The notes under the pieces were generated by a model, which was not told the DNA's origin, did not search any database, and worked only from the letters and a program-made list of their open reading frames with translations. A stretch of DNA of 63,922 nt, the filler included, from Octopus bimaculoides (taxonomy: Eukaryota), in the NCBI RefSeq assembly GCF_001194135.2. It is 5 parts of 5 records of this genome, joined end to end, with 100 filler letters (N's around TTAATTAATTAA, not from the genome) between each part and the next. Parts side by side here need not be neighbours in the genome. Positions count along the whole stretch, not along the records: positions 24,090 to 54,628 come from NC_069002.1; positions 54,729 to 60,072 come from NC_068982.1; 3 more parts are not named here. One strand, 5' to 3'. Made by a program: the position numbers and the translations under genes. This document shows, piece by piece, positions 26,377-55,299 of the stretch. Every line of letters starts with the position of its first letter. Positions within the stretch are counted from its first letter, which is position 1.

Positions 26377-26461
26377 AACCATTTACAGCTGTTTCTGTTT
26401 ATCAAATCGAGGTAAATTTGCACTTATCTCATTCAACTTAACAAACATCGTCAGAATGATT
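26377..26461 (-). ncRNA. Type I minimal hammerhead ribozyme, intact core
   Basis: Minus strand reads aaucauu-CUGACGA-stem II (15 contiguous pairs, 4 G.U, 22-nt loop)-GAAA-C-AGCU-G-UA^-aaugguu. Stem I is 7 bp and loop 3 is a palindromic tetraloop. Predicted cleavage is between 26384 and 26383. Confidence 0.8.
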
Positions 26462-26984
26462 TAGAGAAATATAAATAGGAGGAAAGGAAAAGAAAGGAAA
26501 AGGAAAAAGCAAAGAGAAAAGGAAAAATGTTCGTTAAGTCTTTAGGCTTACATTTTGGGTCCCACATGTGTGTACGTTTCCTTAATTAGATGAATGGAGC
26601 AGTAAGTGGACAACGCACGTTAAATGATGATGATGATGATGATGATGATGATGAAGAATGTTATTTGAGCGAGATTGTTGAGATTTCTTCATTTGCTCAA
26701 GATGTGTTTGTTACTCGTTTATTTCATGAATAGCAGATAGTTTATCAGACTAACAGCAAGTTGTCAGATTGACAGATTGGCAAATTGTGAGGTTGTCAGA
26801 TTGTCAAACTCACAAGAGATTGACAGATTGTCAGGCTAAACAACATTGTCAGATTGTCTGAGAATATATTGAGGTATTTACAATAATCAATTGCTATCAA
26901 GATAGCAATTGACATAAAGTAAATGAAAGACACACAGACAGACAATGAAACAGAATTTCCAGACTGAACCAAAAAAGTAGGTTA

Positions 26985-27945
26985 GCAAAATAAAGATGAT
27001 GATGATGATGATGATGATGGCGATGATGATGATGATGATGATTGTGATGAGGTTGGTGATGATGATAGTGATAATGATGATGGCAATGAAGATGATGATG
27101 AGGATGATGATAGTGAAGATGCTGATGATGATGATGATGTCGACAGAAAGTAGAAAGTCATCCAATCCCACCCGGATATGCAAGACTAATTATAATAATT
27201 TCTGAATTAATAAAACTAATTACCCAGAACATTGTTAACGGTGTTGATAATCTAGAGATGCATAGAGAAGTGGTGGTGGTGGTGATGGTCCCCATCGTCG
27301 TGGTTGTGGTAGAGTCGCTACTAAGTATAAACTTAGTAGTGGGGTGGTGGTGATGGTGGGAGTGGGGGTGATACTGATAGTGCTGGTTGTGATGGTGGTG
27401 GTGATGGTAATGGTTGCGGTGGTGCTACTGGTAAAGATGGTGCTGGCTGAGATGGCGACGGTAGTAGTGGTGATGGTGGTGTGGTGGTGGTGCCAGATGA
27501 AATGTGCTGATGTGACAGTGACCAGAACTATTATCAAACTACCAAAGGCATTAAACCCATTGACCATTCCATATATTTCAGACACAGTCTACCCTGGACT
27601 ACATTACCCAATGTGCAAGGTTTGAGTGAGATTAGGCTGCTGTTTCTAGCATGTCATGTAACCATGCCAAGGCCTCCTCTGACATGATTGATTTTGATGG
27701 CAGTGGTGGTGGTGGGGGTGATACTGGTAACGGTGGGGGTGGTAGTGTTGATGGAGATGTTGATAATCGTATGATGAAGGAGTGGGGACTGGGGTGGTAG
27801 CAGAGATGATGAAGATGATGATGGTGATGACTGCAGGTGTAGGAATGTTAGTGATGTTGATGCTGGTGATGATGGTGGTGATGATGATGATGATGGTGAT
27901 GGTGGTGGTGATGGTGATGGTAGTGATGGTGGTAGTGGTAGGAGG
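26985..27945. repeat. Degenerate (GAT)n/(GGT)n low-complexity tracts
   Basis: Seen directly; source of the spurious M/V-rich ORFs. Confidence 0.9.
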
Positions 27946-28756
27946 GGTACATTGTTCTAATGCACTCAGTAACCCCTACGTCAATGATTCTTCTTCTCTG
28001 CAGAGCAGACAGAGAAGAGTTAGCAATTATGCCATGGCTCCTTCAGTGTGTGTGTGTGTGTGTGTGTGTGTGTGTGTGTGTGTGTGGATGATGTTGCTTT
28101 TATGATGTGTGTGGGGAGGGGTTATGTATCAGAATGCAAGGAGTGCGGGTTGGGGATACACGAAGGTGATCAGAGGGTACCTATTTTTGAAATTAGGCTA
28201 ACTTTGTGAAGTACAACACTAGCACCACCGCCACCACCACTACCACCACTGCTGCTGCCACCACCACCATGCCTGTCTCCTCACTTCCACACAGCACTTC
28301 TTCAGACCACCATGCCCCACCTACAGATTGGATTAGAGAGGGGAAGAAAGAGAGAGAGAGAGAGAGAGAGCAGTAGACAGAGCTATAAGAGAGAGAGAGA
28401 GAAAGACAGGGAGAAGAAGAGTAAATGGAGCAAACAGGGGTAGGGAGGGAGAGAGAGACTGAATGGCATCTTCTACTACTACTACTACCCCAACAATATG
28501 TGTGTGTATAATATAGAGTGCAGTCACCATATTTCATTCTATAATGGCTACCTCTGATGTGCACAGGGTTACATGATCGGACTGTTACCTAATGCTCTGT
28601 TGAGCCACTGGTGTGAAACCTATTGATAAGATCAGCTGTAATGGATATTTAATACTATACACTTCGATTAATATAATTAATACATATATGTATGTATATA
28701 TATATATGAGAAAATGAGATGACAAAGGAATAAACAATTATCTTATGACCTTCATT

Positions 28757-28856
28757 AGCTTACAGCTGTTTCTTCTGGGAGATGCAGTGGACACATAGCT
28801 GAGTGCCTGAGCAACACCTTATAGCTTCATCAGAGCCTTGGACTGAAACATATGTA
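28757..28856 (-). ncRNA. Degenerate hammerhead element (core and stem III intact, stem II broken)
   Basis: ggcu-CUGAUGA...GAAACAGCUGUA^-agcu on minus, with the same GAAACAGCTGTA as 26384-26395. An inverted GAAACATATGTA lies on plus at 28845-28856. Confidence 0.45.
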
Positions 28857-53194: not shown

Positions 53195-53410
53195 TTACAA
53201 AATCTATATAATATTCCAGGTTCAATTCCACTGCGTGGCATCTTGGGAAAGTATCTTCTACTATAGCCTCGAGCCGACCAAAGCCTTGTGAGTGGATTTG
53301 GTAGACGGAAACTGAAAGAAGCCCGTCATGTGTGTGTGTGTGTGTGTACATATACATGCATGTATGTATTTGTGTGTCTGTGTTTGTCCCTCCCATCATC
53401 GCTTGACAAT
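53195..53410 (+). mobile_element. SINE family B, partial
   Basis: Consensus match. Confidence 0.88.
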
Positions 53411-54628
53411 ATATATATATTCCTGTCTGGCTTCAAATGGCCGAGGCGGTACCCATCATTTGAGGGGGCGAAATCATGTCTGATAGTCCGCTGTGACGTC
53501 GTTTGGAGATTGATGTGTCTTCACACAGAAAGTCTGCAGGGAAAACTTTGTTCACCGCAACAAAACCGCGCAGCGAATGTTATTCCCGTTGTAGTGTGTA
53601 GGGACGTGTTAATTACAAATGTACACCGCATCTCACATGCTCACACACACACACACACATACACACACACACACACTCTGTCTGTCTCTCTCTCTCTCTC
53701 TCTCATTCACACACTCATACACAAACACACATGCAGAACCATATAGGCAATGAGTGCTTGTGTGACACAAACACTGTAGAAAGATAGATAAGACGTGGGG
53801 TGGGGGAAAGATAAGAAGATAAAAAAAAATTAAAGATTGGGGAAGTATGCTGGGTGGGGGTAGAAGTTAGACCCAGAAAAAGCCAAATAAATCAATTAAT
53901 TACAGAGAGGGGGAGAGCCAGAGAGGGAGAATGAGAGGAGAGAAATAATTACAATAACAACAGGACTAACGAGAACATCAAGAGATGGATGGCAGCAAAA
54001 AAGACTGAGTCCTGAAAGAAAATATATATTATTTAGTAAATGTATTCCCGTTAATAAAGAACACTCGTTTCTCAAACCAAGAACAATAATCGCAAAAACA
54101 ACATCAGCAATTTTAAGAAATTAGGAAAAGAAAAGAAAAATAACGGCCACCTGTTGAACAGATTGTAGGTTTTGTGTGGGATGGTGACTCGATTCTCTTC
54201 CTCTTTGAGTTGGCTGTGAATGGTTAGGAGGATGGAGTGATGGTGAGAGACGGTGTGGTGGTGGTGGTGGTGGTGGGTGTACACAGATGGTACCGGTGGG
54301 TGTGGTTGATCACATGGATTGAGCGGGGAGTGTGGGAGGCGGAAGTGATTTTAGAAACTATATCTGAGTATGTTTGTCTTCTGCACATGTTTATATGTAT
54401 GTTTGTGTGTGTGTGTGTATTTTTGTGTATTTGTGCGTGTGCGTTTGTGTGTGTGCATGCGTGTGTTTGTGTGTGTGTGTATTTGCAAAAGTGCTTGTAC
54501 ATGTGTATGTGCAAAGAGAGAGAGAGAAAGGGGGAGAGCGATGCATTCACTCACTCACAGACACACACACACTCAAGCAAATACAGAAGACATACTCAGC
54601 TATAGTTATATATATATATATATATATA

Positions 54629-54728
54629 NNNNNNNNNNNNNNNNNNNNNNNNNNNNNNNNNNNNNNNNNNNNTTAATTAATTAANNNNNNNNNNNNNNNN
54701 NNNNNNNNNNNNNNNNNNNNNNNNNNNN
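54629..54728. other. Artificial scaffold linker N44-TTAATTAATTAA-N44
   Basis: Same 100-bp layout as 23990-24089. Confidence 0.93.
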
Positions 54729-55171
54729 GCAGCTGAGGAGTACATTTTCATTGTACATTCTGTGGTGTTCTCACCACATGAATAAATGGAGCTTGTACGA
54801 AGCGCACGTACTACTATAACCTATTGAATTTTTGTTGCTTATCTTCAAATTTTTATTCACCAAATCTCTTGATTTTGTTTTTGGTTTTTACCCTACCAAA
54901 TTCTGGTGCCTCAAACATTTTAAGTATCACATTTAATCTTTTGATTAAATCTATATTATTATATATAATATATGTATATATACGTATATATATACATATA
55001 TAAATATATATATATATATATATATATACATATATACGTATTTTTGTTAGTTATGCATGTGTGTATATATATATACATATATGTGTGTGTGTGTGTGTGT
55101 GTGCGCGCACGCGTTTGTGTGTGTGTGCGTGCGTCTATGTTTAGAGTGTTTGAAGTGATGTACAGATATTG

Positions 55172-55299
55172 TATATTAAGAAGGAGGCAGTCAGAATTTT
55201 GGATAATTCTTTATTAGCGCTTTCGTCCATTCTATCGAACTCTCCAAGATATATAAAGAATTATTCAAAATTCTGACTCCCTCCTTCTTCTTAATGCAT
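55172..55299 (-). ncRNA. Hairpin element (about 40-bp arms) with a degenerate hammerhead at its apex
   Basis: Arms attaagaa(gaa)ggagg(c/g)agtcagaattttg(g/a)ataattcttta. The apex on minus reads UUGGAGA-GUUC gauagaau GGAC-GAAA-GCGC-UA (55215-55247). Confidence 0.5.

Follow-up and report, generated by a model that had tools for sequence, protein, structure and literature searches.

The question raised by the stretch of Octopus bimaculoides DNA considered here (63,922 nt, filler included, referred to throughout as the window) is whether the five hammerhead-like ribozyme motifs that it carries, E1 to E5, are copies of one element or traces of several. An earlier note had taken them as a single candidate family of foldback elements, forming one high-copy, non-autonomous ribozyme system of the retrozyme kind or resembling the termini of Penelope-like elements (PLEs). 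In our analysis the five are probably the remains of separate 5'-truncated insertions of PLE pseudo-long terminal repeats (pLTRs), left by different PLE families, and three of them are hairpins that probably formed insertion by insertion, with a second copy laid head-to-head. The window is AT-rich, microsatellite-laden animal DNA that includes 3,398 N, and the motifs and foldbacks lie in it as follows.

26377-26461, minus strand: E1, a minimal type I hammerhead with an intact C3-G8 core, CUGACGA.
28757-28837, minus strand: E2, a hammerhead-like motif with an intact core, CUGAUGA, a 4-bp stem I and helix III ACAGCUGU.
42986-43121, minus strand: E3, a head-to-head foldback with arms 69% alike across 42994-43113, ending in (TA)n.
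51820-51980, minus strand: left arm of E4, with hammerhead E4a; high-copy family.
51988-52145, plus strand: right arm of E4, the inverted twin, identical at 152/158 nt and ending in a (TACA)n/(TA)n tract.
55172-55299, minus strand: E5, a head-to-head foldback with arms (55178-55289) 78% alike and a damaged hammerhead as its loop.

The succession of core, (stem II), GAAA, short helix III and UH recurs in each of the five, in every case on the minus strand, and from C3 to H17 the motifs span 26454-26384 (E1), 28833-28761 (E2), 43055-43021 (E3), 51954-51925 (E4a) and 55247-55215 (E5), with the inverted twin E4b at 52009-52038 on the plus strand. E1 has a 7-bp stem I, a palindromic helix III (ACAGCUGU) and UA at the cut site, together with an unusually long helix II (52 nt, 15 bp counting G-U) and a U-rich 5' flank; it lacks inverted arms. 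E2, also without inverted arms, has no stem II, the 54 nt in its place having no base helix, and is decayed or chimeric. The E3 hammerhead (43060-43016) has the core CUGGUGA (A6G), an unpaired U after A9 and a weak GG..CC stem II, and its inverted arm begins at G12, pairing off GAAA and the cut site. E4a combines a U3-A8 core, UUGAAAA (51954-51948), with an unpaired U, a 5-bp stem II closed by G-C, an AUAU helix III, a 3-bp stem I and a cut site at 51925; in E4b a G>A change leaves a mismatch in stem II. E5 has the core UUGGAGA (55247-55241; A6G and U3.G8), a 5-bp stem II, an AGCGCU helix III and a cut site at 55215, at about which its inverted arm begins. Helix III is thus palindromic in four of the five motifs and non-palindromic in E3. 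An intact core with all three stems is found only in E1 and E4a, and the motifs are mostly damaged.

The frequency of the motif was compared with shuffles of the window (701 block dinucleotide shuffles, or a set of 3151), with reversed and complement-only controls added for the PLE consensus. A strict descriptor gave three matches (E1, E4a and E4b, the latter two being the twin arms of E4) against a shuffle mean of 0.04, and three were reached in 0/701 shuffles. Without the demand for stem II the same descriptor adds E2 (4 versus 0.17, equalled in 0/701), and the published PLE consensus matched once, at E4a, which fits it in full; 0/3151 shuffles reached one match, and the reversed and complement-only controls gave none. 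A descriptor of strict core, 6-nt palindrome and stem I of at least 4, tailored after E1 and E2 had been seen, catches both, and two matches were reached in 0/3151 shuffles. E3 requires a one-mismatch descriptor (8 matches versus a mean of 2.66; 5/701 shuffles), and relaxed descriptors mostly add noise (8 versus a mean of 2.66, 13 versus a mean of 4.5); their extra matches were inspected and not counted as elements. The 3' half of E5 alone is at chance level (2 observed, mean 1.26), and E5 is accepted as a motif solely because its hammerhead fills the loop of a foldback. Targeted scans of all five motifs with the Rfam hammerhead models gave no match at E<=10, which fits minimal variants, and an Rfam scan of the whole window gave only microsatellite-driven miRNA matches among the 150 of 277 matches listed.

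Pairwise alignment placed 9/10 pairs at shuffle level, E1 and E2 sharing just the helix III motif of about 14 nt, and self-BLAST of the window linked none of the five; compared in this way they are not one family and appear mutually unrelated beyond the motif. Long foldbacks with short spacers, counted after simple-repeat masking, number three: E3 (69%), E4 (96%) and E5 (78%). All three bear a hammerhead-like motif at or beside the junction and have their 5' ends inward, and in E4 both arms (158 bp) contain the whole hammerhead. Head-to-tail tandem hammerhead units of 150-450 bp were found neither in 25500-56000, where the longest period is 41, nor in the self-BLAST. The nearest TRF repeat lies 19, 50, 3, 8 and 75 nt away, and a distance of no more than 100 nt is also found for 45% of random segments. 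The earlier note's claims about the motifs fared unequally in the face of these results. The palindromic helices III in four of five stand, and the motif density, within the window and on the strict descriptor, is above that of shuffled sequence. The common order of parts is kept at all five places, less the stem II of E2 and with the core changes of E3 and E5. Where at least five foldbacks had been counted, E3, E4 and E5 lie in inverted arms and E1 and E2 do not; the proximity to microsatellites (3-75 nt) is modest, and the single family has to be given up.

The E4 family could be followed further, by aligning contigs from two sets, and raw reads from two RNA runs, to 51540-52600. The first contig set (X1, organism A) contains 85% of the words of the stretch; the second (X13) is from organism B. 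In X1 the unique flanks have a depth of 44-47 and the arm bins one of 14,800-77,000. Equivalent arm positions summed give about 1,600-2,400 single-copy equivalents, a rough figure in that contig depth is not copy number, and the E4 family is put at roughly 2,000 copies. X13 covers the arms at a similar ratio and does not cover the unique flanks, so the family is common to a second organism. In single-copy equivalents the E4 spacer stands at some 6 and the arms at about 2,300. Contig ends running 5' past 51980 (57 in X1, 34 in X13) have one shared sequence, of which 30 letters are known, so that the E4 copy in the window is 5'-truncated. Among the 15 of 53 joints listed, 10 are distinct between-arm joints, each found in one contig at a depth of 34-57 and starting at a position between -55 and +76, counted from the cut; the cut site is on one arm only in 4/10, as in E5, and the hammerhead is dropped in 2/10. 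Since the junctions differ and the spacer depth is low, what was amplified is not the foldback, and each hairpin likely arose with its own insertion. Three further features belong to the E4 insertion.

51783-51819, minus strand: one-sided 3' extension of E4 (the tail, about 35 bp), found outside the left arm and not the right.
51799-51915, minus strand: candidate retained spliceosomal intron of 117 nt, with an AAG/GTAAGT donor and its acceptor in the tail.
51774-51782, plus strand: candidate 9-bp target-site duplication (TSD) ATACATACA, repeated at 52144-52152; weak, both sides being (TACA)n.

Depth in the tail is 23,984 at 51795 against about 46 for single-copy sequence, or some 520 single-copy equivalents. 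The donor of the candidate intron lies 10 nt past the cut site and is followed by 109 AG-free nt, the first AG falling within the tail; AG-free windows of this length make up 233/66,472 of those unmasked (0.35%), and no spliced joint for the intron is found among the 15 of 53 joints listed. The candidate TSD, 9-11 bp inside (TACA)n, is weak, and none that convinces was found for E3 or E5. At three places (51856/52107, 51897/52066 and 51905/52058) both E4 arms have G in the element sense, all in CpG, and the family contig depth there is 96-99% A (among the 40 of 289 variant rows listed); the cause is either A-to-I editing of the RNA from which this insertion was copied or a loss of these CpGs in the main lineage.

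The RNA data are standard cDNA RNA-seq, seemingly unstranded, of which about 6% of each of two runs was read, and they carry little weight for small or circular RNA. The run index named no RNA run containing the stretch, and the two used are from three that bear the species label. None of the reads came from the E4 copy itself (0/766 and 0/899 were 99+% alike, and the unique flank bins were zero). Partial fits only were given by 754/766 and 878/899 of the reads on E4, so that they come from other E4-family copies within other transcripts. There was no pile-up of read ends at the cut sites 51925 and 52038, the only one listed being five starts at 52014; an RNA joint between 51821 and 52141 on opposite strands was rejected as an artefact of arm assignment, the two places being equivalent. 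A>G and T>C together account for 75/172 and 86/184 of the variant places in RNA against 32/145 and 27/135 in DNA (Fisher p 5e-5 to 1e-6), and G at 52050, 52051 and 52061 is present in 35-74% of RNA reads against 0.2-0.5% of DNA depth. This suggests ADAR editing of E4-family transcripts, with the caveat that the sites are not independent and that RNA and DNA are from unmatched samples; a few well-expressed copies with genomic G could produce the same picture.

In predicted folds the cores are partly or wholly sequestered. Both E4 ribozymes are buried in a duplex of -260 kcal/mol, GAAA and the cut site of E3 are paired off, and part of the E1 core is paired, with a helix III that is just a palindrome and would need a partner. 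Dimer cleavage of PLE hammerhead variants was reportedly studied by Lunse and colleagues in 2017; our two-copy cofolds gave no convincing active dimer.

The minimal hammerheads of PLE pLTRs have a short stem I, an unpaired base after A9, G10.1-C11.1, a palindromic helix III and covariant U3-A8; each genome has thousands of them, heterogeneous, dispersed and belonging to many sequence families, which for the most part stand alone, with some pairs on opposite strands 100-700 bp apart, and they show little cleavage in vitro (PMC4209133). The octopus motifs are like them (Cervera and de la Pena 2014, PMC4209133) in the CUGANGA or UUGANAA core and the U3-A8 variant, and likewise in the unpaired base after A9, G10.1-C11.1, the short stem I and the palindromic helix III, with E4a fitting in full, E1, E3 and E5 with one or two departures, and E2 without stem II. 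Among the PLE-linked rows of that paper's alignment are cores of UUGAAAA (Schistosoma) and with U3.G8 (Saccoglossus), helices III of UA-UU (C. remanei) and GCGC-UA (Marsupenaeus), and, in D. willistoni, a loop of AGCU; its supplement gives molluscan examples from Lottia and Crassostrea, and no cephalopod in the part of supplement file 2 searched.

In a typical PLE insert the pLTR, 180-220 bp long, is inverted head-to-head, one arm may carry a 31-bp tail, and there is a TSD of 8-10 bp; PLE inserts also show 5' truncation, a tail of 30-40 bp on one arm, a bias towards microsatellites and retained introns (PMC3846280, PMC8557442). In vitro, the reverse transcriptase (RT) initiates at two sites that lie 111-118 nt inside the open reading frame (ORF) and define the tail; the DNA that is cut is AT-rich, and the hammerhead, which needs protein in order to cleave, is dispensable for insertion (PMC11167929). 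The octopus inserts resemble those of endonuclease-positive (EN+) PLEs (Arkhipova et al. 2013; Craig et al. 2021; Frangieh et al. 2024) in truncation, inversion, the one-arm tail and the AT-rich or (TA)n target, and also in an element end some 100-140 nt beyond the hammerhead and a possible retained intron. A head-to-head inverted copy is seen in E3, E4 and E5, with variable junctions and a 5' continuation in the E4 family, and not in E1 and E2, which have no inverted arm, and the optional 30-40-bp tail at one end is present in E4 only. Unlike a canonical EN+ PLE, just the pLTR stub remains here, and its clade may be Penelope/Poseidon, Neptune or another. Naiads, which are the PLEs that Craig et al. 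name for Octopus, are without canonical hammerheads (PMC8557442) and are therefore an improbable source of the stubs.

No PLE RT or GIY-YIG match was found among 218 stop-to-stop segments of at least 55 aa scanned in the window, a set made up of the 214/384 that passed a complexity filter and four added by hand, to which shorter or low-complexity segments do not belong; such absence is as expected for stubs. The sole RT in the window (57566-58220), R2-like and followed by zf-RVT, belongs by its likeness to a different, non-LTR element. From the footprint as a whole (motif, inversion, tail, target and copy number) membership of the PLEs is likely, and the E4 footprint is the one that PLEs are known to leave when they insert head-to-head with 5' truncation, and differs from that of a tandem retrozyme or a foldback copied as a unit. 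The earlier note's comparison with Penelope termini is upheld by the motif subtype, the head-to-head inversion, the one-sided tail, the TA-rich target and the high copy number of E4, and its remark that a PLE RT or GIY-YIG ORF is missing agrees with the segments scanned; its single high-copy ribozyme system, or retrozyme, finds no support, given the unrelated motifs, the lack of tandems in the stretch searched and a foldback that is not the amplified unit.

The insertions may have arisen in the following manner. An autonomous PLE elsewhere, a partner not seen here, would be transcribed through a pLTR bearing a minimal hammerhead, and its GIY-YIG nuclease would nick TA-rich DNA, by the mechanism described in PMC11167929. 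RT would begin at either of two sites, some 110-140 nt 3' of the hammerhead, so that the tail of some 35 bp, seen in E4, would be present in some copies and absent from others; an early stop of synthesis together with an inverted copy would make a junction unique to each insertion, as in the E4-family joints, and a differently truncated second copy laid head-to-head would complete the hairpin. The stubs would be dead, through core mutations (E3, E5), loss of stem II (E2) or predicted burial of the ribozyme in a duplex (E3, E4), and host transcripts reading through other copies would form hairpins that ADAR may edit, the A>G excess being observed and its cause suggested by it.

Several points weigh against an origin in separate PLE insertions. 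An RT or GIY-YIG ORF is linked to none of the five within the window, and the 5' continuation of E4 is known for just 30 letters. The copy-number, tail and junction data are those of E4 alone, the other four being assigned by resemblance. E1, with its 52-nt helix II, and E2, with its 54-nt insert, are unlike the PLE minimal hammerheads, in which helix II has 7-8 bp, and the candidate intron follows the hammerhead on its 3' side, while that of D. virilis Penelope stops at the 5' side of helix I (PMC4209133). Contig depth is not a copy number, palindromes are prone to mis-assembly, and the TSD of E4 is weak. Arm depth, finally, drops only gently towards the 5' side, so that a short master with a fixed 5' end slightly past 51980 is possible.

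With such a master the E4 family, and perhaps others, would be a dedicated non-autonomous element derived from PLEs, retrozyme-like but monomeric and dispersed. The master, a few hundred bases long and comprising hammerhead, intron and tail, would be moved in trans by a PLE protein, possibly via a small circular RNA. The roughly 2,000 copies, a depth that stays high up to the 5' limit of the E4 copy and the lack of any ORF seen all agree with this, as do the argument that non-LTR retrozymes derive from pLTRs and leave monomers (bioRxiv 10.64898/2026.07.22.740005) and the known existence of solo pLTRs and of pLTR-driven trans mobilisation (PMC3846280). Animal non-LTR retrozymes (PMC7229834; Li et al. 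2026), known from a mollusc (Mytilus), are likewise short, ORF-less, PLE-related and provided with a type I hammerhead. They are, however, arranged as head-to-tail tandem units of 150-450 bp, have hammerheads of the canonical form and form abundant circles, whereas the octopus motifs are single or head-to-head, minimal and mostly damaged, and the canonical type I form (stem I of about 6 bp, stem II of about 4 bp and a loop-loop contact) is not seen among them. The stretch searched holds no tandem head-to-tail units, the hammerhead is of the minimal PLE type and not the canonical retrozyme type (PMC7229834), the family runs on 5' in the 57 and 34 contig ends, and the hammerhead is missing from two of the 10 listed junctions; the two RNA runs show no read-end pile-up at the cut site, which counts for little in a standard cDNA library. 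We consider a non-autonomous master unlikely.

The next alternative turns on the host gene. A 25-residue exon matches PF05761 in a Pfam scan and is identical to the cytosolic purine 5'-nucleotidase of Octopus bimaculoides and Argonauta hians (3/3 candidates), and O. bimaculoides proteins map to three minus-strand NT5C2 exons, with 62/62 residues matching in exon 51101-50916; on these matches the window is an octopod NT5C2 locus.

31530-51101, minus strand: host gene, cytosolic purine 5'-nucleotidase (NT5C2-like), with coding exons 51101-50916, 38691-~38569 and 31604-31530.

No NT5C2 exon beyond the third was found over the remaining 31 kb. A good-looking splice acceptor at 51110 (-) lies 9 nt before the ATG of the first coding exon found, implying a 5' untranslated exon farther upstream. 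E3 is intronic, between the first and second of the exons found, and E1 and E2 share an intron downstream of the third, all on the sense strand; E4 and E5 precede the first ATG found, by 0.7 kb and 4 kb. Exaptation of the E4 splice donor by NT5C2 was considered and not seen, the coding exons lying outside the aligned stretch. A 57-bp direct duplication (98%) that flanks a 10-N gap at 36532-36655 is probably an assembly artefact.

That E1 is a ribozyme retained by the host in an intron, like HH9 and HH10 of amniotes, with E2 and E5 chance matches or unrelated decay products, would accord with the position of all five on the host sense strand and of three in introns, with the intact core and most stable stems of E1 and with the chance level of the E5 3' half alone. 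The strand bias of 5/5 gives just p = 0.06, however, E3 and E5 have core mutations, the predicted fold of E1 pairs part of its core, and its palindromic helix III would need a partner; we regard this reading as very improbable. Least credible of all is that the foldbacks are miniature inverted-repeat transposable elements (MITEs) or foldback DNA transposons copied as a palindromic unit, with an incidental likeness to hammerheads, which the 158-bp arms of E4 at 96%, the TA-rich surroundings and the listing of MITEs for O. vulgaris (PMC13282606) might favour but which is largely refuted by the contig evidence, namely a spacer at some 6 against about 2,300 single-copy equivalents for the arms, junctions that vary by copy, a one-sided tail and a family that continues past the inner arm end, and by a motif that fits the PLE consensus (0/3151 shuffles).

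Other repeats were noted in the window. Around E4 there is a 39-bp palindrome followed by a low-copy repeat (51578-51720; depth up to 620), and a second low-copy repeat lies at 52260-52475 (contig depth 380-1,525 versus 44), with a TATA-like box (-) near 52455. A possible sixth motif at 52430-52455 consists of a 3' half only (near 52440), without a core, and was for that reason not counted as an element. The RT described above is part of a broken non-LTR retrotransposon at 57300-59400 (+) with RVT_1 and zf-RVT matches, whose best solved relatives are R2 proteins. We take this element to be Dong/R4-like, and a fragment at 50245-50625, without a Pfam match, presumably represents the nuclease end of the same non-LTR kind. 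At 21600-22479, inverted arms of about 190 bp (72%) enclose a 193-aa frame without a Pfam match, which we assume to be a remnant of a mariner transposase. Two dense SINE-like families (short interspersed elements; 3543-3833 and 8362-8807) have many copies each in 64 kb at 70-85% identity, and no tRNA gene was called in the window. A scan of metagenome contigs for the E4-like motif pattern gave six loci, L001-L006, which are 90-100% identical copies of one locus where a U3-A8 minimal hammerhead stands beside a tandem repeat of about 130 bp, in sequence unrelated to the window; with the same U3-A8 core and no PLE-like ORF by eye, they were set aside as uninformative on an ORF link.

Octopus is rich in PLEs, and O. 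vulgaris has 31 Penelope-like families that were active recently (PMC13282606, PMC8967140), hammerheads being unmentioned in the parts of these two papers used here, and the giant squid genome has 235 hammerhead-1 loci (PMC6962438). Our literature search, which covered few subscription journals, found no study of octopus PLE hammerheads. As best explained, our finding places an octopod among the animals whose genomes are littered with minimal hammerheads of PLEs, which in itself matters little. It also serves as a warning that PLE stubs can mimic a new ribozyme family, and in E4 it offers a tidy PLE footprint, with inversion, tail and candidate intron, in 360 bases.

The hairpins themselves may be of wider consequence. 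Hyper-editing is very high in octopus, and in a lizard Penelope is heavily edited (PMC5625713). As with the palindromic Harbinger repeat of Xenopus (PMC5625713), a single insertion gives a tight hairpin without a neighbouring inverted copy; unlike that repeat, the palindrome here is made per insertion by a retroelement and is not in the consensus, and editing is suggested from site counts. No paper linking PLE stub hairpins with octopus hyper-editing was found in our literature search. Hairpins made at each insertion, in about 2,000 copies of one family, could add to the load of double-stranded RNA in octopus and to its hyper-editing (PMC5625713). We suggest, tentatively and as something more doubtful than probable, that octopus has PLE-derived inserts by the thousand, all very short and perhaps stemming from a dedicated non-autonomous master with hammerhead, retained intron and tail, and that these, each building a near-perfect hairpin, might form a sizeable and self-contained source of double-stranded RNA for hyper-editing, in which editing or pairing would silence the ribozyme.

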